Source: a virus (lineage: Duplodnaviria > Caudoviricetes). Taken from it: a stretch of DNA of 53,246 nucleotides. Shown piece after piece: positions 8,309-43,068 of the stretch (its first letter is position 1; each line of letters begins with the position of its first letter). The notes under the pieces are model-generated. The model did not search any database and was not told the origin of the DNA. It saw nothing but the letters and a program-made list of their open reading frames with translations. The stretch covers positions 1-53,246 of the IMG/VR virus record IMGVR_UViG_3300042945_002100; one strand, 5' to 3'. The translations under genes and the position numbers were made by a program.

Positions 8309-9802
8309 ATGGAATTGTTCGGCTTTAAATTAGAACGGTCGAAAAAGCAACAATCTGATTTCAAGGCACTTAAGTCGTTCGTGGTCCCCACCACGGACGA
8401 TGGTGCCATTCCGGTCGAGGCTGGCGGATTTTATGGTCAATATGTCGATCTTGATGGTTCTGTCAGAAATGATTTTGAACTAGTTGCAAAATATCGCGAA
8501 ATGTCAATGGATCCTGTCTGCGAAGTTGCCATTGATGATATTGTCAATGAATCCATCGTAACCGAACCAGGCAAAATGCCAATCAAGTTGTCATTTATAA
8601 ACGATTCCACTTTGGCACTTACTCCTAAGATCAAGAACAAAATCGAAGAGGAATTCAAGAACATTCTTCGTTTGATGTCATTCGACACAAAAGGATATGA
8701 AATCTTTCGAAGATGGTATGTGGACGGAAAGATATATTTTCATATCATCGTTGATGAAGAAAAGACGGAAAAGGGAATACTTGAACTTCGATATGTTGAT
8801 CCTCTCAACATACAAAAGATCCGTGAATTCAAGAAGGAAACTCGTCCAGATGGAAACAAGATTATCACGGGATTCCGTGATTTCTATCTTTACAACAAGG
8901 ATAATCCTCGCGTAGGTTCTTCTCAAGGCATAAAAATTAGCGATGATGCAATCGCCTTCTGTTCATCAGGAATGTTTGATAGTCGCTACCGCCGAACGGT
9001 GGGTTTTTTACACAAAGCCATCAAACCGTTGAATCAATTGCGAATGATGGAAGATGCCGTGGTCATCTACCGAATCTCCCGCGCTCCCGAACGCCGCATT
9101 TTCTACATCGATGTAGGCAATCTTCCCAAGACAAAGGCAGAAGCCTATGTCAAGGACATCATGAATCGGTATCGCAACAAGTTGGTATACGATGCCAACA
9201 CGGGCGAGATTCGGGATGACCGCAAGTTCATGTCCATGCTTGAGGACTATTGGTTGCCTCGCCGTGAAGGTTCAAAAGGAACCGAGATCAGCACCCTGTC
9301 CGGCGCACAGAATCTTGGTGAACTTGCCGACATCGTGTATTTTCAGAAGAAGTTGTATCGCGCTCTCAATGTTCCTGTCAGCCGCCTTGAGCAGGACAAG
9401 GGCATTGCCCTCGGAAGATCGTCAGAAATCAATCGTGACGAACTAAAATTCTCAAAATTTGTATCTCGCCTACGCAATAAATTCAATGAACTCATTTTTG
9501 ACCTTCTACGCAAGCAAATCCTACTCAAGAATATCATCACTCCAGATGAATGGCCCTCCATCAAGGAAGTATTGTTCTTGGATTATCTCAAGGATTCTTA
9601 TTATGTGGAAGCCAAGAATGCGGAACTACGCAAGCAGCGCAACGGCGAACTGAATGATATTGAAAAATACATAGGTAAGTATTATTCTCATTATTGGGTT
9701 CGTACACAGGTTCTCGGCATGACTGAAAGCGAAATTGCCGAAATGGATAAGCAAATGTCTGTGGAACGAAACAAGGGAATGTATCCATCAACAGATGGAT
9801 AA
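8309..9802 (+). CDS. gp20: Portal protein gp20
   Basis: FRRWYVDG, MEDAVVIYRISRAPERRIFYIDVGNLPK, EDYWLPRREG. Confidence 0.97.
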   Translation: MELFGFKLERSKKQQSDFKALKSFVVPTTDDGAIPVEAGGFYGQYVDLDGSVRNDFELVAKYREMSMDPVCEVAIDDIVNESIVTEPGKMPIKLSFINDSTLALTPKIKNKIEEEFKNILRLMSFDTKGYEIFRRWYVDGKIYFHIIVDEEKTEKGILELRYVDPLNIQKIREFKKETRPDGNKIITGFRDFYLYNKDNPRVGSSQGIKISDDAIAFCSSGMFDSRYRRTVGFLHKAIKPLNQLRMMEDAVVIYRISRAPERRIFYIDVGNLPKTKAEAYVKDIMNRYRNKLVYDANTGEIRDDRKFMSMLEDYWLPRREGSKGTEISTLSGAQNLGELADIVYFQKKLYRALNVPVSRLEQDKGIALGRSSEINRDELKFSKFVSRLRNKFNELIFDLLRKQILLKNIITPDEWPSIKEVLFLDYLKDSYYVEAKNAELRKQRNGELNDIEKYIGKYYSHYWVRTQVLGMTESEIAEMDKQMSVERNKGMYPSTDG

Positions 9803-11012
9803 AGAAAGGAAAAGGCTGGAGATGCAAAAGAACAATCTTTCAGGTGTCTTGGATTCCGTAAATGAGAAGGATGCCGTTGCATTCAAGAACTCCCTTGTTC
9901 AGGCTCTCAACAATCGATTGTTTGCAGCACTTGAGACAAGAAAGAACGAGGTTGCAAAGGAAATTCTCGGAGAGAGCGAGGCTACCGCAGAAGAAGTAAA
10001 CGAAGCCAACATTCTTGCACCGACTGCTCCACCTGTGGTTGGTGTGAAGAAGAAAACGGGAAAGACAATTGTTCCTCCCCCACAGACAAAGGCAGAAGCG
10101 ATTGCTCCTGCAAAGCCAGCAGTCGATCCTGCCGCAAAAGCCAAGGCAGATATGTTGAAGGCAAAGGCTGCTGTTCAGGCAAATAAGGCAAAGTTGGATG
10201 CAGTTGAAGTCAAGAAGAATGTTCTCGACAAGAAGGAACTTGATACCATGCAACGGCAGATTGATGCTGTCATGGACAACAGCGTTGACATTGCGTCTTT
10301 GAAGCCTGTTCCTGGCGGATTTGAAATTAAGAAGCAACCAGACGATGGTCTGAATCCGACATTGGACAAGGAATTCCTGATGAAGACTTTTCAGCACAAC
10401 GGCAAGATCGTTGAATTGAAGCAGATCGGTCTCGGGCTTTCAAGACCCATCCGTGTTTACATTGATGGTAGTCGATGGAATTTCTTTCCAGGACTTGAGT
10501 CTGCTGCGAAGATGGCAAAGGAATACATCGACATGACTAGTGGTATGAACCGCGAGTCGATTGAATCTGTTGCAGAGACTATATCAGAGAAGGTTGATCT
10601 TGATGGTCGAACAAAATTGGTCAGAGATACGATGGCTCGCCTTGAGATGTACAAAAAATCTCGAATCGAGAAAGCCAAAAAGATGCAGGAAGAGCAGGAA
10701 ACAGGAGAAAAGAAGTATGAGGGTCTGTACAAGGATGGAACAGGACGAGGAGCCTTTGTTCCTGAGCCATATAACACAGGGGCAAAGGTGCATCCATATT
10801 TCCAAAAGAGCGTAACCGAAGGGATTCTTGATGAATTTAAGAAAGCATTCGGCAAGGAAAGCATGACCTTCCATGAAGGGGATAAGGAAGAATATGAAAA
10901 ATTCTTCAAGGCTGCAATGAAGAAATTTGGCATTAATGCACCATCAGACCTACAGAGTGATGCAGACAAGAAGAAGTTCTTCGCCTATATCAAGAAAAAT
11001 TACAAGGGTTAA
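9795..11012 (+). CDS. Enlarged prohead core protein at the gp67 locus (multi-module)
   Basis: Follows the portal. N-terminus FKNSLVQALNNRLFAALETRKNEVAK is gp67-like; C-terminus YEKFFKAAMKKFGI..P.DL..KKKFF resembles T4-like core modules. Start uncertain (9795 or 9822). Confidence 0.65.
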   Translation: MDKERKRLEMQKNNLSGVLDSVNEKDAVAFKNSLVQALNNRLFAALETRKNEVAKEILGESEATAEEVNEANILAPTAPPVVGVKKKTGKTIVPPPQTKAEAIAPAKPAVDPAAKAKADMLKAKAAVQANKAKLDAVEVKKNVLDKKELDTMQRQIDAVMDNSVDIASLKPVPGGFEIKKQPDDGLNPTLDKEFLMKTFQHNGKIVELKQIGLGLSRPIRVYIDGSRWNFFPGLESAAKMAKEYIDMTSGMNRESIESVAETISEKVDLDGRTKLVRDTMARLEMYKKSRIEKAKKMQEEQETGEKKYEGLYKDGTGRGAFVPEPYNTGAKVHPYFQKSVTEGILDEFKKAFGKESMTFHEGDKEEYEKFFKAAMKKFGINAPSDLQSDADKKKFFAYIKKNYKG

Positions 11013-31271: not shown

Positions 31272-31553
31272 TCAATTCTTCAGACTGTTGACGATTTCCT
31301 TGTAGGTTGTCGGGCGGGTGATCGCCTTCTTCCCTTCCGCCGTTTCGGTGATCATCACGGCATCGTAGAGATTGCCGCTCTGTCCGATAAGTGCAGTCAG
31401 CACCGCGTACTTGGCGGTCTGCACATTGTAGCGGGAAACGACATACCAAGAACCCACGGTCAGGTTCTTGGCTCCATCATTCCAAGTCGCGTTGGGGACT
31501 TGGCTCTTCAGTTTTTCGTTGAGTGTTGCTGCGTAGAGCGTTGCATCAACCAT
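31272..31553 (-). CDS. Hypothetical protein
   Basis: ORF in tandem array. Confidence 0.6.
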   Translation of the reverse strand: MVDATLYAATLNEKLKSQVPNATWNDGAKNLTVGSWYVVSRYNVQTAKYAVLTALIGQSGNLYDAVMITETAEGKKAITRPTTYKEIVNSLKN

Positions 31554-31668: not shown

Positions 31669-32049
31669 TCAGCCCTTGAGGTAAGCAGGGCCATACGGAG
31701 TGAGTTTGCCGACTCCACCATCGGAGTCGAACAGATTGCCACGGGCGTGTTTGGCAGGAGCCTTGTAAGTTGCGGGCTTCAGAACATCACCCGTGAACTT
31801 GTCAATGAATGCCCAAACCGACCGCTGTCCTGCGCCATTGTCAACGATGCTGTCGATTCGCACATAGCGGCGACCATCGGTCATCTCAAGGACGCTCGGA
31901 GTCAGACCAGGAAAGTTGTTGGCATAGTTGGTGTTGACGACTTCCTGTGCCTTTTGCAGCCATTCGTCAAGACGCTGCCATGCCGTACCGTTCCAATTGG
32001 AAGGAAAGGTAGCGGAGGGAGACATGAGATTCAAGGCTTTGACGATCAT
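31669..32049 (-). CDS. Conserved phage early hypothetical protein
   Basis: SVWAFIDKFTGDVLKPATYKAPAKHARGNLF; AAGGA RBS. Confidence 0.75.
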   Translation of the reverse strand: MIVKALNLMSPSATFPSNWNGTAWQRLDEWLQKAQEVVNTNYANNFPGLTPSVLEMTDGRRYVRIDSIVDNGAGQRSVWAFIDKFTGDVLKPATYKAPAKHARGNLFDSDGGVGKLTPYGPAYLKG

Positions 32050-32058
32050 TGGATTCCT

Positions 32059-32736
32059 TCAGGCGAGGCGAGAAGCGATCACGGCAAGGACGGCACGGGC
32101 ATCCTTGATCTCACGATCAAGGGCGGCGAGGTGACGAGCGACTTGATCGTAGGCACGGCCATCGCAAGCCCAATGGGTCTCGGAAGACGAGCGCACATAT
32201 TCAGCGGTGCGGTTGATGCTTTCGTTGATGCACTCCGTGGTGCGCGTCAGCAGGACGGTCAGGGATACACCCCACTCCTTCGCAGTCTCCTCGTAGAGGC
32301 GCATCAGTTCGGTCTCAAAGACTTCGTTTTCGTAAACCTTGAGATTGGCGATCTCAACCGCGAGACCCGCATCAGTAACATCGCGCTCAAGATTTACCGT
32401 GACAACATCACGCGGACGCAGGAAGATCACATCCGCATAACGACCGTTGGGCAACTTCTTGTCGGTCAGGGCGAGGGCATAGCGAGTACCCCATTTGGTC
32501 TTGCCAGACCAAACCAAGGTTCCCGTGGAGCCTTCGTTGCGACCGTTGACAACCCTGTAGCGCACACCGACCTTCGGTTCGGGTGCAACCCACAGAGCCT
32601 TGCGCTTTTCTTTGAGTTCCAAATAACGCTTGTCGTGAGATTCCTTCGCCGTCTTTCGGGCGGCAGCAGGAATCAACACCGTGCTGAATCGCTTTCGCGC
32701 TTCGGCATTGTTGGTGTTGGGGGTCAAGGCGGTCAT
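32059..32736 (-). CDS. Hypothetical early protein (KOW/SH3-like segment plus helical tail)
   Basis: AAGGAG RBS; VGVRYRVVNGRNEGSTGTLVW. Confidence 0.65.
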   Translation of the reverse strand: MTALTPNTNNAEARKRFSTVLIPAAARKTAKESHDKRYLELKEKRKALWVAPEPKVGVRYRVVNGRNEGSTGTLVWSGKTKWGTRYALALTDKKLPNGRYADVIFLRPRDVVTVNLERDVTDAGLAVEIANLKVYENEVFETELMRLYEETAKEWGVSLTVLLTRTTECINESINRTAEYVRSSSETHWACDGRAYDQVARHLAALDREIKDARAVLAVIASRLA

Positions 32737-32760
32737 TCGGGGGTCTCCTTCGACATCACG

Positions 32761-32789
32761 ATTGTAGCAAATGCCGTATTCCTTGTCAA
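32761..32789 (-). promoter_or_regulatory. Sigma70-type early promoter
   Basis: TTGACA-N17-TACAAT on the minus strand. Confidence 0.8.
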
Positions 32790-32814
32790 GCCACATTTAG
32801 GCTATAAAGTCCGA

Positions 32815-33038
32815 TAACAACATCCCCCACGGTTTCGAACCCGTGGGGGCGTTGCCTCTCTGCGACTCTGCGAGATATCAATCAGCATGACGAGGCAGTA
32901 CCGTCAAGCAAATATTATGCAGGGGCAACCCGCCCCTGCCGCTCTGTGCCTAAAACCTGTTTAACCTCGCACAGACGAGGGCGGCTAGTCCCGAGCGAAT
33001 CGGGGCAGAGAGCGAATCTTCTTCGCCGCACTTTGACA
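32815..33038 (-). ncRNA. Candidate structured ncRNA (about 220 nt), family unknown
   Basis: Own promoter, multiple stems, closing CUCUCUGC/GCAGAGAG helix, 3' hairpin CCCCCACGG/CCGUGGGGG; no ORF of 60 aa or more. Confidence 0.6.
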
Positions 33039-33043
33039 CCCAA

Positions 33044-33072
33044 AGTATACGGTATCTATGGTCAGCCGTCAA
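33044..33072 (-). promoter_or_regulatory. Sigma70-type promoter
   Basis: TTGACG-N17-TATACT on the minus strand. Confidence 0.75.
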
Positions 33073-33081
33073 GTAACCAAA

Positions 33082-33480
33082 TCAGCGGATTTTATGTCCG
33101 ATAACACCTGTCGGCATTTCAGCGATTCCGTTGCCTGTGGTGTAGTAGATTCGGTCAAAGACCTCCACGCACCAAGGCAAGCACTTTGGACAGGGGCGAC
33201 TAATGCGCTCCTGCCCGAATCGATTGAAACGGAAATTCCAAAGTTCAAGACCGCTGCGATCATCCTCGCACTTGCGATACGCATCAAGTTCCGAATGAAG
33301 TTCGTCAAACAGGTATCCGTACTTCTTCGCCATCGGATGGGTCTTCAACAGATTCGTACCAACGGAGATGACGCGACCCTTTCGCAGAATGATGCTGCAA
33401 TGCCGCTTGGGGCGGTCGATGTGAAGGCAGATTTCCTTTGCCAACTTGTAGATGTTGCAAGGGCAGTCGATGTTATTCAT
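33082..33480 (-). CDS. Cytidine/dCMP-deaminase-fold zinc deaminase
   Basis: ISVGTN, LHSELDA (HxE), SRPCPKC (PCxxC), IYYT. Confidence 0.8.
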   Translation of the reverse strand: MNNIDCPCNIYKLAKEICLHIDRPKRHCSIILRKGRVISVGTNLLKTHPMAKKYGYLFDELHSELDAYRKCEDDRSGLELWNFRFNRFGQERISRPCPKCLPWCVEVFDRIYYTTGNGIAEMPTGVIGHKIR

Positions 33481-34106: not shown

Positions 34107-34403
34107 TCACTCGGATGCTTCGATTGCTTCTTGCATCGAAGAGCAAACGAGAAAGCCAGGTGTCCCTTCGCCTTGCCATGCACCAACTACATTAAATTCC
34201 ATAAATTCTATGGCCTCTTCTTCCGTTGGAATACCCTGTTGCATTAAGATTTCAATGCATTTTTCGTAGTCATAAATTGCAACTGCGGGCTTGCCACAGC
34301 GTCGAATAAGTCCCATGAACGCGGTTTCAAACCCATTGGCCCAAAGAGTTTCTTCGATTCTGGGCTTGATGTCATCCCACTTCTTCGTCTGTGTCGGTTC
34401 CAT
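34107..34403 (-). CDS. Conserved phage hypothetical protein
   Basis: GFETAFMG..AIYDYEKCIEIL..EEAIEFMEFNVVGAWQGEGTP. Confidence 0.7.
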   Translation of the reverse strand: MEPTQTKKWDDIKPRIEETLWANGFETAFMGLIRRCGKPAVAIYDYEKCIEILMQQGIPTEEEAIEFMEFNVVGAWQGEGTPGFLVCSSMQEAIEASE

Positions 34404-35019
34404 AATCTTCTGACTTCAACTTTCTCTGTAGTTTCTTTGCCCAAATCTCGGTCACGGTGAGTGGATATTCAACGGACTCAAACTTGAACCCACGCGCTCC
34501 TGTTGAATTTTTCTTCTTGAGAGTTGTGTAGATTCCATTCAATCGCATTGGATTGAACTTTCCTACGGGCGCAACAACATTAAGACCAGGCCACGCACCT
34601 TCCCGCGTACCAATCAGCACCGCTTCCTCATCTTTCGGATCCTTAAAGAGTACGCAGTCCTGTCCATACTTCTGACCCATCTTTTTGGCAAATCCCTTGA
34701 TGCCGCCTACCGAACCAGGAGAATCATCACGACCGATGATCAGAAACGATTCTTCGATGACTTGAATCTTCTTGTCGCCATAGTCTTCTTCGTAGCGACC
34801 GATCAGTTTTTCAAACCCGAACCCCGCAGCACGAATGTCATTTTCAAGTTTTGCGTTGTTGGTTCGGTTTGCTTGCAGGGAGATAGGCTCTCCTGTTTCC
34901 TTGTTCTTGAAGCGAAACGCAGTAAGGAGTGCAATCGGACGCTTCTGCACATGGGAAGCAATTCTAGAAAGCGAGACCTCGTTGAGTGGTTGTCTGTCAA
35001 ATCGATCTTCCTGCTGCAT
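34372..35019 (-). CDS. S-adenosylmethionine lyase (T3 SAMase-like)
   Basis: LLTAFR, IRAA, GRYEE, EESFL, YGQDCVL align with T3 SAMase motifs as recalled (LVSAFR, LRAA, GCYRE, EEKTV, WEQDCVL). Confidence 0.75.
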   Translation of the reverse strand: MQQEDRFDRQPLNEVSLSRIASHVQKRPIALLTAFRFKNKETGEPISLQANRTNNAKLENDIRAAGFGFEKLIGRYEEDYGDKKIQVIEESFLIIGRDDSPGSVGGIKGFAKKMGQKYGQDCVLFKDPKDEEAVLIGTREGAWPGLNVVAPVGKFNPMRLNGIYTTLKKKNSTGARGFKFESVEYPLTVTEIWAKKLQRKLKSEDYGTDTDEEVG

Positions 35020-35191
35020 TGCTTTCTCCTGCAAGTTCCTTTGTTTCCTTCAATTGTATGTAGAGTTTCTTGATCTCTTCAAACGCTTTGGACGATGTGA
35101 ACTTCCCTTCGTCCTCCAACTGCAATATCCACGCGACCTTTCGGGCGAACTCTCCTATGTTCGCATGGATTATGAAATCTTCGATGTCCAT
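34997..35191 (-). CDS. Hypothetical protein
   Basis: AAGGA RBS; FARKVAWILQLEDEGKFTSSKAFEEIKKLY. Confidence 0.6.
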   Translation of the reverse strand: MDIEDFIIHANIGEFARKVAWILQLEDEGKFTSSKAFEEIKKLYIQLKETKELAGESNAAGRSI

Positions 35192-35208
35192 TGAAGTTCC
35201 TTTCGTAA

Positions 35209-35547
35209 TGGAGATGAGGGGAGTCGAACCCCTGTGTTGAAATGGTGCGCCAGAGCGGCGGCTACATGATTAGTCCATGTGCGTTTGAAATGCCTTGGGC
35301 ATGGACACCCTTGGCAAGTTTTCCATCGTTCGTCTTATGAACCCAAGCACGATGGAGGCTTGTGGCTCAAGTCCCGATGATTGCGAATCGCCCCATATCG
35401 GGGTCAGTTGCGATTCGTTCGCTGATTAAGCAGCGAGGGCAAGTCTGCGGTTGGCAGTTCTTGTTTGATTGCATTTTTACGAAGCCTAGCAATCTTCTTC
35501 GTCATGCTCCGTTCTTTTGACCATCCAATCGAAACCTGTTCATCCCC
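35209..35547 (-). ncRNA. ssrA: tmRNA, tag peptide (A)ANRRLALAA*
   Basis: 5' GGGGATGAACAGGTTTCGA and 3' GGGGTTCGACTCCCCTCATCTCCA; G3.U acceptor pair; tag frame 35455-35426; 339 nt. Confidence 0.93.
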
Positions 35548-38935: not shown

Positions 38936-39006
38936 TTCTCCCGCTAGGATTCGAACCTAGACCAAGAGGATCAAAACCTCTTGTGCTACCGTTACACTAC
39001 AGGAGA
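38936..39006 (-). tRNA. tRNA-Gln(TTG)
   Basis: Cloverleaf; AGAGG-TTTTGAT-CCTCT anticodon arm; TTCGAAT T-loop; CCA not encoded. Confidence 0.92.
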
Positions 39007-39081
39007 GAATTACTTCTATCCTGCATTTTGTTGCGAGTTGTCCCGTTCTTGCTTCAGAGCGAACATCCTTTCAGGCAACGG

Positions 39082-39088
39082 TATTTAT
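39082..39088 (-). promoter_or_regulatory. Late promoter inside the tRNA cluster
   Basis: ATAAATA on the minus strand just 3' of tRNA-Lys. Confidence 0.5.
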
Positions 39089-39091
39089 CAA

Positions 39092-39164
39092 TGCTCTCGG
39101 CGGGACTTGAACCCGCAACCAATTGATTAAAAGTCAACTGCGCTACCAATTGCGCTACGAGAGC
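39092..39164 (-). tRNA. tRNA-Lys(TTT)
   Basis: GCTCTCG/CGAGAGC acceptor; CTTTTAA loop. Confidence 0.94.
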
Positions 39165-39196
39165 GTAAGAAATTAATTCTAGGCTGTTTTGGTTAG

Positions 39197-39270
39197 CGTC
39201 CCTGGGTGGATTCGAACCACCGACTTATTGCTTAGAAGGCAATTACTCTATCCAACTGAGTTACAGGGAC
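39197..39270 (-). tRNA. tRNA-Arg(TCT)
   Basis: GTCCCTG/CAGGGAC acceptor; CTTCTAA loop. Confidence 0.94.
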
Positions 39271-39272
39271 AA

Positions 39273-39415
39273 AGCGTGATGAGGGACTTGAACCCTTCGG
39301 CGTTGAGAGGTTGAGGAATACGATCCTCGCTTACCCATGTTTGGAACCTCCTTTGCCTTACTCAGTCATCGCTGATCAGCCGATGACTCTAGACCGCTTG
39401 GTTACGGTATCACGC
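39273..39415 (-). ncRNA. tRNA-like RNA (143 nt) with long central stem and large branched extra region
   Basis: GCGTGAT/ATCACGC acceptor, ACCG/CGGT arm, AGTCATCG/CGATGACT stem, AGGG-TTCAAGT-CCCT T-arm. Confidence 0.7.
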
Positions 39416-39426
39416 AAATGCTCTCT

Positions 39427-39762
39427 TCATTTTTGAAATTGAGACTCAATCTTTTCCCGCGAAATCATGATGATTGAATCACAACGAAATGATCTCCATG
39501 CATTCTTTTCCAAGTCCCATACAACAACATGGTCATCGCTTTCGGTGATTCCCGTCTTCTTCTTCGAATTCGGAGAAACGGCATCTTGCTTGGCAGGAGG
39601 CATCAGGGATGAGTTCAAGGTAGCCCACATGATTCTTTCCTCGCCATTCACCTTTCGGAACTTGACAGTACAGCCGCTTGTGCTTTCAGTAAGCATCTTC
39701 TTGAGGGCTTCCTTGTTTAACATGGGATGAAAAATCCTAGATTGCATTTCAGAAATATTCAT
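39427..39762 (-). CDS. SH3/WYL_2-like beta-barrel protein
   Basis: VKFRKVNGEERIMWATL..VVWDLEKNAWRSFRCDSI. Confidence 0.75.
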   Translation of the reverse strand: MNISEMQSRIFHPMLNKEALKKMLTESTSGCTVKFRKVNGEERIMWATLNSSLMPPAKQDAVSPNSKKKTGITESDDHVVVWDLEKNAWRSFRCDSIIMISREKIESQFQK

Positions 39763-39872
39763 TTTGGATTCCGTGCCTTTCTTGCCGATGATGCCTTCTT
39801 TGCGGAAACTGCCTTCTTTGCCGATGTTGCCTTCTTTGCGGAAACTGCCTTCTTTGGTTTCTTAATTCCCAT
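39759..39872 (-). CDS. 37-aa histone-H1-like Lys/Ala peptide (not in ORF track)
   Basis: MGIKKPKKAVSAKKATSAKKAVSAKKASSARKARNPK*; GGAGG RBS; ATGA overlap with the next gene. Confidence 0.7.
   Translation of the reverse strand: MGIKKPKKAVSAKKATSAKKAVSAKKASSARKARNPK
39773..39854. repeat. Imperfect 18-bp tandem repeat (about 4.5 copies) encoding KKAxSA
   Basis: TGCCTTCTTTGCGGAAAC and TGCCTTCTTTGCCGATGT units. Confidence 0.8.
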
Positions 39873-40287
39873 TTCCGAACAGCCTCCACTTTCTTTCAAA
39901 GGTCGGCCATCTGTCGATGTCTAGACTTGTTTCCGTAAATTCATCGCAAGAGTCATTTGGAAAATATGCACCATCGTCCCATTCAGGAGAGTTCCATGAA
40001 TCTGGTTCGACATTCCATGTTGTCTGCTCATTGTAATCGCTCATGCCAAACAGAATTTGCTGCTTGAGGGAAAAAAGAAGATCGTTTCTTTTTTCGGTGG
40101 TCTTGGCCTCCATCAATGAAATAATAGAGGCCAAGGGAATTTGTACATTCTTTGAACGAGCCAATGCAGAAATGTAATCGATGATTGCAATATAACCTTC
40201 AATTCTGGTGCATTGAATGTCGATGAGTGTCTTTTGCTTGTCAATCAAAGCACGAAGAAGTTCGTGTGAGTCGTTGGTGTGTTCCAT
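39862..40287 (-). CDS. Hypothetical protein
   Basis: ATG 8 nt after the -10 box. Confidence 0.6.
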   Translation of the reverse strand: MEHTNDSHELLRALIDKQKTLIDIQCTRIEGYIAIIDYISALARSKNVQIPLASIISLMEAKTTEKRNDLLFSLKQQILFGMSDYNEQTTWNVEPDSWNSPEWDDGAYFPNDSCDEFTETSLDIDRWPTFERKWRLFGNGN

Positions 40288-40295
40288 TGAGTCAA

Positions 40296-40324
40296 AGTAT
40301 AGAGGTAGTTTGGCGATGTGTCAA
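40296..40324 (-). promoter_or_regulatory. Sigma70-type promoter for the tRNA-containing operon
   Basis: TTGACA-N17-TATACT. Confidence 0.8.
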
Positions 40325-40327
40325 CCA

Positions 40328-40334
40328 CTAAATA
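40328..40334 (+). promoter_or_regulatory. Late promoter
   Basis: CTAAATA 5 nt before ATG 40340. Confidence 0.7.
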
Positions 40335-40339
40335 CTCAT

Positions 40340-41038
40340 ATGAAACGACTTTTGGAACATCTTTTGCAAGAAGAAGACTGTGTCAAGATTTTTGGAAAGA
40401 CCCTTTTTGGAGATTTGATTGGCGGGGAGAAAGACTTGACGCAAGAGAAGGAAATTAAAAAAGCAGTTCAACACTTCTTCAGCGACAAGTTGACTTATCG
40501 GGCTAAACCAGAATCGGTGGTCAAGGCGTTCCGTGCATTGTTAAATTGCAAGTCAAAGTTCCCCGCAGAGTTGCAGCCAAATGTGACCTTGGTCTATCGC
40601 GGCGTTAGATTGACCATGCCTGATATATTGAGAGTCAAGGATTGGAAATTCATTGATGAAACTCATCAGGAAATCACGGGAACGGGAATCTATACATCCA
40701 AGTATCCAATACAGTCGTGGTCTGCAAGTAAAATTCGTGCAGAGTTCTTTGCGATTGACTTTCCGTCTTGGAGAAGCAAGAAGTTGATTCCAACAGTGGT
40801 GGTTGCCACACCCGATAAGAGCGACATGCTTTTCAATACAGCATTCGTCACCAAATTGAAGGCTTCGTCAAGAAACACCGCAGAATACAGCAAAGAACAG
40901 GAAATCGTTCGCGTGAGCGATAAACCGATTCCCTGCCGATTCGTAATTCCTGTCCAATACATCAAGATGACAGATGGAATCACGCAGCCCGTGAAGGATC
41001 ACCTGTTGGCGACCGCAGGACTGCGTATCACGGCTTGA
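40340..41038 (+). CDS. Putative ADP-ribosyltransferase (R-S-E class)
   Basis: LVYRGV, IQSWSAS and KEQEIV in canonical order. Confidence 0.65.
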   Translation: MKRLLEHLLQEEDCVKIFGKTLFGDLIGGEKDLTQEKEIKKAVQHFFSDKLTYRAKPESVVKAFRALLNCKSKFPAELQPNVTLVYRGVRLTMPDILRVKDWKFIDETHQEITGTGIYTSKYPIQSWSASKIRAEFFAIDFPSWRSKKLIPTVVVATPDKSDMLFNTAFVTKLKASSRNTAEYSKEQEIVRVSDKPIPCRFVIPVQYIKMTDGITQPVKDHLLATAGLRITA

Positions 41039-41273
41039 GAATGTTTTTTGCCTTCGCTTGCTCTACGAGATGAGCAAATTCGGGATTGTTCCCGACAATT
41101 TCCATCGCCTTTTCAATGATTGTGGACAATTCTCGCAATGAACGAATTGCATCGTTTGCTGCGGGGTATGTGATTTCCATGAATATCTTGTTGCGTTCTG
41201 TCTTTTTCTGCATATTTGCAGCGGATTCAAGGCGGTCTGCTAGATCACGGGCGTTGAGTGTATTCATGTCCAT
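41028..41273 (-). CDS. Hypothetical protein
   Basis: AAGGAG RBS. Confidence 0.6.
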   Translation of the reverse strand: MDMNTLNARDLADRLESAANMQKKTERNKIFMEITYPAANDAIRSLRELSTIIEKAMEIVGNNPEFAHLVEQAKAKNILKP

Positions 41274-41310
41274 ACGCTCTCCTTTGTTGAATTGTCCACA
41301 TCACGAACAA

Positions 41311-41381
41311 AGCCTCCAATCAGAATTGAACTGATATCTCTTGATTACAAATCAAGGGTATTACCATTATACTATGAAGGC
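41311..41381 (-). tRNA. tRNA-Thr(TGT)
   Basis: GCCTTCA/TGGAGGC acceptor; CTTGA-TTTGTAA-TCAAG arm. Confidence 0.88.
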
Positions 41382-41386
41382 AAGAG

Positions 41387-41468
41387 TGGGAGCGGAGGGA
41401 TTCGAACCCCCGTAGCCGATGGCAGCAGATTTACAGTCTGCCCTCGTTGACCGCTTGAGTACACTCCC
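41387..41468 (-). tRNA. tRNA-Tyr(GTA)
   Basis: GCAGA-CTGTAAA-TCTGC arm; long variable arm; TTCGAAT. Confidence 0.94.
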
Positions 41469-42880: not shown

Positions 42881-43068
42881 GGCACCATGCAACAAATTTC
42901 TTGTCCAAATTATTATCGGACATTTTGAATTATCCACATTCCAGTTCAAACCGTGCAAGCATTTCTTGTCGTTTTTCTTCTTGTTCTGACAAATCTTTCA
43001 GGCATTTAACAAGAAGTTCCTGAAAGTTTTTACTCTGATTTTTACATTGTTCAGAGGTTACACTCAAA

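Follow-up and report, generated by a model that had tools for sequence, protein, structure and literature searches.

A real and self-contained minus-strand transcription unit, the core of which is a known RNA family, the Pistol self-cleaving ribozyme, was found in the genome of a large, uncultured lake/freshwater phage. Its new part is a conserved, uncatalogued three-way junction (3WJ), fused base-to-base to the pistol within a promoter-to-terminator unit and having terminator-ended sister forms in related phages. With moderate confidence, we read the unit as a small non-coding RNA gene, the transcript of which would be split by the pistol into a 5' RNA bearing the 3WJ and a 3' structured RNA. 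The window (the whole stretch of DNA analysed) is a 53-kb IMG/VR virus record (53,246 nucleotides; CheckV completeness, 29%), which also contains a tmRNA and five tRNA genes. Its sequence recurs in lake and freshwater metagenomes; a BLASTN search (distant mode) with 4.1 kb of it gave no match among deposited phages. The elements of the unit and its flanks, in the direction of transcription, are:

33096..33104, minus strand: TTATCGGAC site, 23 nt upstream of the -35 box of the unit
33044..33072, minus strand: sigma-70-type promoter of the unit (-35 TTGACG, 33072-33067; 17-nt spacer; -10 TATACT, 33049-33044)
33030..33037, minus strand: short 5' leader, with a putative start ~7 nt past the -10 box (from promoter geometry)
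32981..33029, minus strand: 49-nt 3WJ motif, directly 5' of the pistol (covariance model R1, 75 bits)
32913..32980, minus strand: Pistol self-cleaving ribozyme (Rfam RF02679, 60.6 bits versus a cut-off of 34.5)
32850..32912, minus strand: 3' module, with the hairpin UGACG/CGUCA (32906-32902 with 32892-32888) and two GCAGAG repeats (GCAGAG, 32871-32866; GCAGAGAGG, 32863-32855)
32814..32849, minus strand: intrinsic terminator, a stem-loop (32849-32824) followed by the tail AUGUUGUUAU
32809..32817, minus strand: second TTATCGGAC site, 19 nt upstream of the -35 box of the next gene
32761..32789, minus strand: promoter of the next gene, TTGACA-N17-TACAAT with TG (11/12 matches)

The first-pass annotation, made from the letters alone, had described a stand-alone, structured RNA with its own promoter and terminator that was not merely a 5' UTR, and this description held. 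The TTGACG-N17-TATACT promoter is located as it had been described (33072..33044, minus strand), with 10/12 consensus matches, and its -35 and -10 boxes are fixed in position, with a diverging spacer, in 6/6 aligned relatives (L002-L005 and L008 are the named ones). The separate promoter claimed for the next gene was also borne out (TTGACA-N17-TACAAT, 32789..32761), and is followed by a GGAG ribosome site and an ATG at 32736. Promoter-like sites in a 3-kb scan numbered 6, versus 1.8 ± 1.2 in shuffled sequences. The previously listed hairpin CCGA/UCGG is present as CCCGA/UCGGG. The terminator-like pairing CCCCCACGG/CCGUGGGGG was confirmed at 32849..32824; terminator-like sites by scan numbered 2 versus 3.5 ± 2.0 expected, a count that by itself is not above chance, and the terminator is supported because it is conserved with compensatory changes in relatives (L008, L010, and L012). 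The minimum free energy of the 226-nt RNA was -95.9 kcal/mol, versus -80.9 ± 5.2 in shuffled sequences (z = -2.9; better than 200/200).

The TTATCGGAC word is probably a promoter-associated DNA site rather than part of an RNA. Four exact copies exist in the window (~0.4 expected by simple arithmetic), two of which lie 19-23 nt upstream of both local -35 boxes, and the word occurs in either orientation upstream of promoters in L003, L013, L031, L126, L188, and L197. With up to one mismatch, 10 sites were found versus 9.2 expected, namely, no enrichment. A possible internal promoter in the 3' module at TTGACGG was rejected: it has no -10 box and is absent from the promoter scan.

No conserved peptide coding by the unit was found among the relatives. 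The 29-codon GTG ORF noted earlier at the 5' end is present, inside a 40-aa frame (32950..33072), but a 1-nt indel in L003-L005 shifts its frame. A 28-aa ATG frame (32802-32888) was also rejected: it has neither a ribosome site nor a conserved stop codon, and the ATG is absent in L010.

The family had been reported as not recognised, with an Rfam/Infernal search proposed and a match to a known family listed as evidence against novelty. When that search was run, the central 68 nt proved to be a full-length pistol (model positions 1-68 of 68; local E-value, 2e-10), the single one in the whole record. The label of an unrecognised RNA was therefore retained for the 5' 49-nt motif, but not for the RNA as a whole. 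The pistol elements are:

32980-32977 with 32968-32965, minus strand: P1, CCUC/GAGG
32975-32969 with 32949-32943, minus strand: pseudoknot of 7 bp, UCUGUGC/GCACAGA, joining the P1 loop to the P2/P3 linker
32957-32954 with 32916-32913, minus strand: P2, U:A, U:A, G:U, and G.A
32939-32932 with 32926-32919, minus strand: P3 of 8 bp, GCAGGGGC/GCCCCUGC
G32950, G32949, G32942, C32941, and G32940, minus strand: core bases, from the alignment to RF02679
32917..32918, minus strand: predicted cleavage site A32918/U32917, the 2-nt P3/P2 junction (model positions 63-64)

The pairing UCUGUGC/GCACAGA, previously assigned to a hairpin, exists, but it is the pistol pseudoknot and not an ordinary hairpin; the other proposed hairpin, GCAGGGGC/GCCCCUGC, is present at 32939..32919 and corresponds to P3. 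P1, the pseudoknot, and P3 were 100% paired over 7 related copies with 6 compensatory pairs (P1, 1; pseudoknot, 3). The core set (the AAA linker, UUA-purine-GC, and G-C-G of GAGCG) was complete in the RF02679 alignment. Reviews (PMC6154101) assign catalytic roles to a purine preceding GC, the first G in GAGCG, and flanking C and G bases; all of these were found in the window pistol, using a putative env25-to-Rfam numbering map. P2 is weak (-3.7 kcal/mol as an isolated duplex) and barely detectable in L010; its pattern in the window matches GGCU/AGUA, common among other phage pistols (general form U:A, N:N, G:U, and G.A).

The cleavage junction has the usual length of 2 nt and reads A-U in place of the usual G-U. 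According to Harris et al. (2015, PMC4604425), GU at the cleavage site is "modestly conserved" and its identity "varies somewhat", with a strictly conserved junction length; since GU is only modestly conserved, the A-U junction is not disqualifying. A-U was also found in L002, L009, L374, L381, and L382 (three lineages), G-U in L003-L005 and L010, and GA in L372 and L383. In an independent sample (80 of the 91 other phage stretches matched by a core pattern), a crude parser resolved 72; among these 72, GU occurred in 46 and AU in 1, the near-twin of the window, and the remaining junctions were mostly mis-parses of long P3 inserts. The window ribozyme is an ordinary new member of the known pistol class.

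The motif immediately 5' of the pistol folds into a three-way junction with the following helices:

33029-33025 with 32985-32981, minus strand: H1, GCGGC with GCCGC
33022-33017 with 33011-33007, minus strand: H2, loop UUCGC
33005-33000 with 32994-32989, minus strand: H3, loop UUCGC

GAA, UG, and CUA are conserved at the junction, and the consensus order is H1 (5-6 bp), GAA, H2 (GARGA-UUCGY-UCYCU), G, H3 (UUCG-type loop), CUA, and H1'. Plain energy folding of L002 gave the same 3WJ. The earlier pairing of GCCGC (32985-32981) with a downstream GCGGC did not stand: no covariation was found for it, and the partner that covaries is the upstream GCGGC (33029-33025).

Model R1, built from seven equal-length motif members, found 20 copies in 19 sources when searched against the fetched loci, and a second pattern scan found 14 further copies on 12 new contigs: in total, at least 34 copies on 31 phage/metagenome contigs (the fractions below refer to 34). 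The homolog collection and covariation analysis that had been suggested as a check revealed compensatory changes in all three 3WJ helices. In the first set (20 hits, 15 distinct), 94.2% of cells were paired and 14/16 pairs had changed on both sides, with a covariation score of 0.577 versus 0.220 for shuffled alignments (0/500 as high) and ≤0.126 for slid partners. In the second-scan set (17 hits, 14 distinct), no hit of which was used in model building and 3/17 of which repeat first-set contigs, the corresponding values were 90.5%, 10/16, and 0.486 versus a shuffled mean of 0.154 (0/500 as high; best slid control, 0.085); both alignments were fitted to R1 and are hence biased towards it.

Rfam 15 gave no match at the motif (E up to 10, positions 32500-33400), nor at the motif in the pistol-less L124, L188, L197, and L218 (E up to 1). 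A hammerhead or tRNA-like junction was rejected: the junction letters disagree by eye, and there was no tRNA or Rfam hit. When the pattern AGARGATTCGNTCYCTGC was searched in metagenome and genome collections, 10 of the 240 matches examined passed a crude structure filter, and 3 of these were the motif (L188, L197, and L218); no host clue emerged from the matches examined. Two others, L130 and L226, were rejected as the motif (apparent protein-coding stretch, ...GKRIRSLP...), and this coding stretch likely explains the many bacterial hits. A whole-record R1 scan of G001-G003 was negative but unreliable, having missed the weak L012 copy found by direct Infernal. Judged from folding and covariation, the 3WJ is well supported as a candidate new family of structured RNA, found in large freshwater phages and absent from Rfam 15.

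A "zinc deaminase" gene directly upstream had been offered as a possible partner of the RNA. This was not upheld by the comparison of 30 viral loci encoding the upstream protein: the unit is directly downstream in only 5/30, lies ~1 kb upstream of the gene in L007 and L009-L013, and no copy of the motif was found in the other 18. The deaminase-like trace itself consists only of an HSE...PCPKC spacing, seen by eye; Pfam at E up to 0.01 gave no family (only DUF4388 at E = 0.048, below the cut-off), PHROGs no match, and PDB sequences none below E = 0.7.

In one alternative, the unit is a 3' UTR element of the upstream operon: most transcripts would arrive from upstream via the "deaminase" gene, the pistol would simply trim the 3' end of that mRNA, and the promoter would be incidental. 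The interval from the upstream stop codon (33082) to the unit contains no terminator, the 3WJ directly follows ORF stop codons in an L123-like clade, and an RNA-library contig (32950-33203; depth 2.4; possible DNA carry-over) extends across the promoter. However, the promoter boxes are position-conserved in 12/12 pistol-bearing units in three genomic settings, and the "deaminase" gene is not upstream of the unit in L009, L010, L372, L374, and L381-L383. We regard this alternative as distinctly unlikely. Six metatranscriptome runs contain parts of the stretch, and 4 were mapped, giving five shallow contig pieces (32300-32482, 32557-32778, 32667-32895, 32950-33203, and 33114-33257; depth, 2.4-3.8). 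One crosses the promoter and one the terminator, which leaves room for read-through from the upstream gene; no piece ends at the cleavage site or covers 32896-32949. Since the contigs could be DNA carry-over, they carry no weight either way on expression.

The fusion of the 3WJ and pistol is recurrent. The full unit is found at the same place in L002-L005, and a pistol over the cut-off follows H1' immediately in 12/34 motif copies, with a spacer of 0 nt in 10 (the window, L002-L005, L009, L010, L374, L381, and L382) and 4 nt in 2 (L372 and L383). All 12 fused copies have a sigma-70-like site, the -10 box of which ends 6-15 nt before H1; overall, a promoter-like site accompanies 17/34 copies versus 176/9300 random positions (1.9%). 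Another 12/34 copies come after an ORF stop codon and a GUGGUG-loop hairpin, none of them with a pistol (0/12), and 5/34 belong to neither class. Because of the 12 copies after ORF stop codons, the description "5'-terminal small RNA" is not true of the whole family. No hit of the 3WJ was obtained in 723 kb from 76 unrelated phage pistol loci, and the 3WJ-pistol link is thus specific to this phage group and not general. No pistol over the cut-off was found in two near-complete relatives (93% and 98% complete) in a search for which the control gave no signal; by this result, the unit is dispensable. In most relatives lacking the pistol, the motif is closed off by a terminator hairpin instead; the sequences that follow the motif are:

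L008, L128, and L377: terminator hairpin, 7-11 nt downstream
L011 and L013: hairpin, then AGGAG and the start codon (ATG) of a gene with the N-terminus MTLPYE
L007: ribosome site and ATG directly
L009: pistol, the P2 3' strand of which runs into the ATG of the MTLPYE gene; cleavage would leave a 4-nt leader
L010, L012, L374, and L382: terminator-ended unit; a separate promoter serves the MTLPYE gene, the ATG of which lies 6-8 nt past the -10 box

In another alternative, the pistol and 3' module are a selfish or neutral insertion, with no selected role, in an older 3WJ small-RNA gene. Presence is patchy: L008 retains the promoter, the first ~50 nt with the 3WJ, and the terminator without the middle (pistol and 3' module), and the near-complete relatives lack an over-cut-off pistol. 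The 3' module is conserved in L002-L005 (its GCAGAG repeats and the terminator also in L010), is missing from the pistol-less L008 and L012, and is replaced by a different one in L372, L374, and L381-L383, so that 3' modules vary by lineage. On the other hand, the exact joint of 0-4 nt is repeated in four or more diverged lineages, compensatory changes are maintained in the pistols, and fusion is confined to promoter-proximal copies (12/12 fused, versus 0/12 of the post-stop copies). We consider an insertion of this type improbable. Within the 3' module, the previously listed UGACG/CGUCA hairpin is present (32906-32902 with 32892-32888), and no covariation was seen among aligned relatives. Pairing of the GCAGAG repeats with the 3WJ was rejected (a C.A mismatch in 5/6 lineages, and no covariation).

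The first-pass annotation had treated the unit as a single novel RNA of ~220 nt closed by a long helix, CUCUCUGC/GCAGAGAG. Energy folding of the window sequence alone does predict this helix (probability, 0.78), but it is not conserved: the probability of its core is ≤0.01 in L002, L003, and L005, and ≤0.10 in L010. In L002, the nearest relative, U33009 is changed to C and compensated within H2 by A33019 to G, and the long helix is lost. Furthermore, L008 and the L123 clade conserve the 5' strand despite lacking any 3' partner for it, and the core of the RNA is a known Rfam family. A single closed RNA is therefore highly improbable.

A further alternative is that the 3WJ is a cis-acting control element, binding RNA polymerase (as in put-type antitermination), a phage protein, or a small molecule, and that the unit is a regulatory leader in which the bound 3WJ governs terminator read-through or the activity of the fused pistol. 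In 17/34 copies, the motif is at the predicted start or no more than 15 nt away from it; its junction letters are highly conserved and its helices covary in an aptamer-like manner, and genes follow it closely in several relatives (hairpin and ribosome site in L011/L013, the gene directly in L007, and the pistol running into the start codon in L009). A zero-nt joint to P1 is the geometry of engineered allosteric ribozymes, and was present in 10/12 fused copies. However, a terminator-ended unit with a separately promoted next gene is found in the window, L002-L005, L008, L010, L012, L374, and L382, 12 copies are located after an ORF stop codon, and the downstream gene is not constant across both clades. 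Both hairpin loops are of the UUCG type, unlike known ligand pockets, and the sole alternative pairing found (H1' GCCGC with GCGGC of the pistol core) is lost in L009/L010. We assess the control element as unlikely, and its narrower form, a natural allosteric pistol ribozyme in which the 3WJ, as a new class of functional phage RNA, senses a ligand or protein and directly gates the fused pistol, as improbable. If true, an allosteric pistol would decide the release of the downstream RNA, which is a structured small RNA in the window and, in L009, an mRNA with almost no leader.

The small-RNA gene reading is based on a motif 3' end that is formed by either a terminator or a ribozyme, the latter allowing onward transcription. 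We infer the following course. Host RNA polymerase would initiate at the unit promoter, and an RNA of ~215 nt would end at the intrinsic terminator, containing the 49-nt 3WJ, the pistol from the very next base, and a structured 3' module of ~100 nt that includes the terminator hairpin. The pistol would fold via P1, the pseudoknot, P2, and P3, and cut itself between A32918 and U32917, probably yielding two separate small RNAs: a 5' product of ~120 nt (3WJ and ribozyme body) terminating in a 2',3'-cyclic phosphate, and a 3' product of ~100 nt with a 5'-OH end. The 3WJ may be the conserved working part, with its 3' end formed among relatives by a nearby downstream terminator hairpin or by the pistol; the pistol version would give two separate RNAs from one promoter, the second of which would be a nearly leaderless mRNA in L009. 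Points against the small-RNA gene are the weak P2 and its near absence in L010, the rare A at position -1 (1/72 parsed pistols), the dispensability of the unit, the 12 post-stop copies, and the contigs that leave read-through possible.

A text search of the literature, in which sequences are not searchable and which excluded supplements (the Weinberg 2015/2017 lists), found no paper on the motif or on a pistol-3WJ fusion; a prior description is possible. In Harris et al. (2015, PMC4604425), which also cites Weinberg et al. (2015), the pistol class is associated with phages, and, as to its natural role, this paper and a review give only an association with phage genes. The present units provide a defined, recurring pistol partner, a conserved RNA domain joined base-to-base in 12 units from several diverged phages, and the use of a terminator hairpin at the same place by sister phages is a natural swap that favours the pistol as a maker of RNA ends.

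Among known systems, the closest is the Pistol class itself (RF02679): P1, the 7-bp pseudoknot, P2, P3, the 2-nt junction, and the core bases are the same in the window copy, whereas the -1 base is usually G in the class and A here. Many of the other phage pistols in our sample (80 of 91), judged by eye, closely precede a ribosome site and ATG, and the window pistol differs by its central position in a non-coding unit running from promoter to terminator and by its spacerless fusion to a conserved RNA domain. The antitermination RNAs of phage HK022 (put) are structured, promoter-proximal or located after the first gene, and upstream of terminators, similar to the 3WJ; they consist of two stem-loops, as opposed to a three-way junction, and are not known to resemble it in sequence. 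The motifs drum, DUF3800-I, and FuFi-1, as well as skipping-rope, as described by Weinberg et al. (2017, PMC5737381), resemble the 3WJ in being compact, strongly conserved multi-helix motifs with a 3' terminator, no obvious regulated gene, and a location near ribozymes or phage genes; the 3WJ has no Rfam match to them, is smaller (49 nt), and is ribozyme-fused in a third of its copies. In theta (HDV-like) ribozymes next to phage tRNAs, a phage ribozyme also abuts a structured RNA, and RNA-end processing is proposed by Kienbeck et al. (2024, PMC10879173); that system uses another ribozyme class and acts on the 3' side of a tRNA, whereas the partner here is the 3WJ.

Further elements lay next to the three-way-junction (3WJ) RNA motif in some of the related phage and metagenome loci (L-numbers). 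A conserved hairpin of the form ACNNG-GUGGUG-CNNGU was found directly 5' of the 3WJ in L124, L128, L188, L197, L218, L373, L378, and L380, where it directly joined the UAA stop codon of the preceding ORF to the motif, and its stem covaried: ACUGG/CCAGU versus ACGAG/CUCGU. In two of these loci, a -10 box just 3' of the 3WJ was overlapped by an inverted repeat:

L378, about 9063-9200, and L380, about 10406-10560: 15-nt perfect inverted repeat (TAGAATCTACTTGGT ... ACCAAGTAGATTCTA)

L130, L226, and many of the genome-contig matches listed share the 18-mer from helix 2 of the 3WJ by chance: in them it falls within what reads as protein-coding sequence (...GKRIRSLP...) that is conserved among many soil bacteria. 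Pattern searches with this motif are therefore prone to false matches.

A short word, TTATCGGAC, had four exact copies in the window:

33096-33104, minus strand
32809-32817, minus strand
31382-31390, minus strand
42913-42921, plus strand

Two of the four were followed by -35 boxes 19-23 nt downstream, and the word was also located, in either orientation, upstream of promoters in L003, L013, L031, L126, L188, L197, and L378. One possible role for it is as a site bound by a regulator of the phage. In L013 and L031, the gap between the "deaminase" (a first-pass annotation label without profile support) and the next gene, which in the window houses the RNA unit (promoter, 3WJ, pistol ribozyme, 3' module, and terminator), contained GTCCGATAA and a TTGACA box, with a terminator hairpin ~20 nt after the box. 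This arrangement is possibly what is left of the unit, or an empty version of it.

Other features of the window were:

31669-32049: 126-aa protein neighbouring the 220-aa protein below, DUF7717 match
34372-35034, minus strand: 220-aa protein matching the S-adenosylmethionine lyase family (PF23780, E 2e-10)
35206-35547, minus strand: phage-encoded tmRNA (Rfam, 119.8 bits)
38936-41468, minus strand: five clustered tRNA genes (Gln-UUG, Lys-UUU, Arg-UCU, Thr-UGU, and Tyr-GUA)

The 220-aa protein possibly functions in anti-restriction. The tmRNA, which ARAGORN did not call in the window, is conserved in L002, L004, L005, L006, and L008, where it again precedes this locus on the upstream side. Larger tRNA arrays were present in the more distant relatives L016-L030, on the opposite strand and upstream of the "deaminase".

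In some relatives, start codons lay inside a pistol or shortly after a -10 box. In one relative, the codon lay within P2, the pistol helix whose 3' strand follows the predicted cleavage site:

L009, 531-600: pistol ribozyme with a start codon in the P2 3' strand (AACAUG)

This codon belongs to a 149-aa gene (MTLPYEQY...) without a ribosome site, and predicted cleavage would leave a 4-nt leader on its mRNA. In the phages of L010, L012, L374, L382, L126, L128, L378, and L380, many genes had ATG only 6-8 nt past the -10 box, a layout seen at promoters downstream of the 3WJ in these eight loci; because of this short gap, their mRNAs are predicted to be leaderless, which hints at a host group efficient at leaderless translation.
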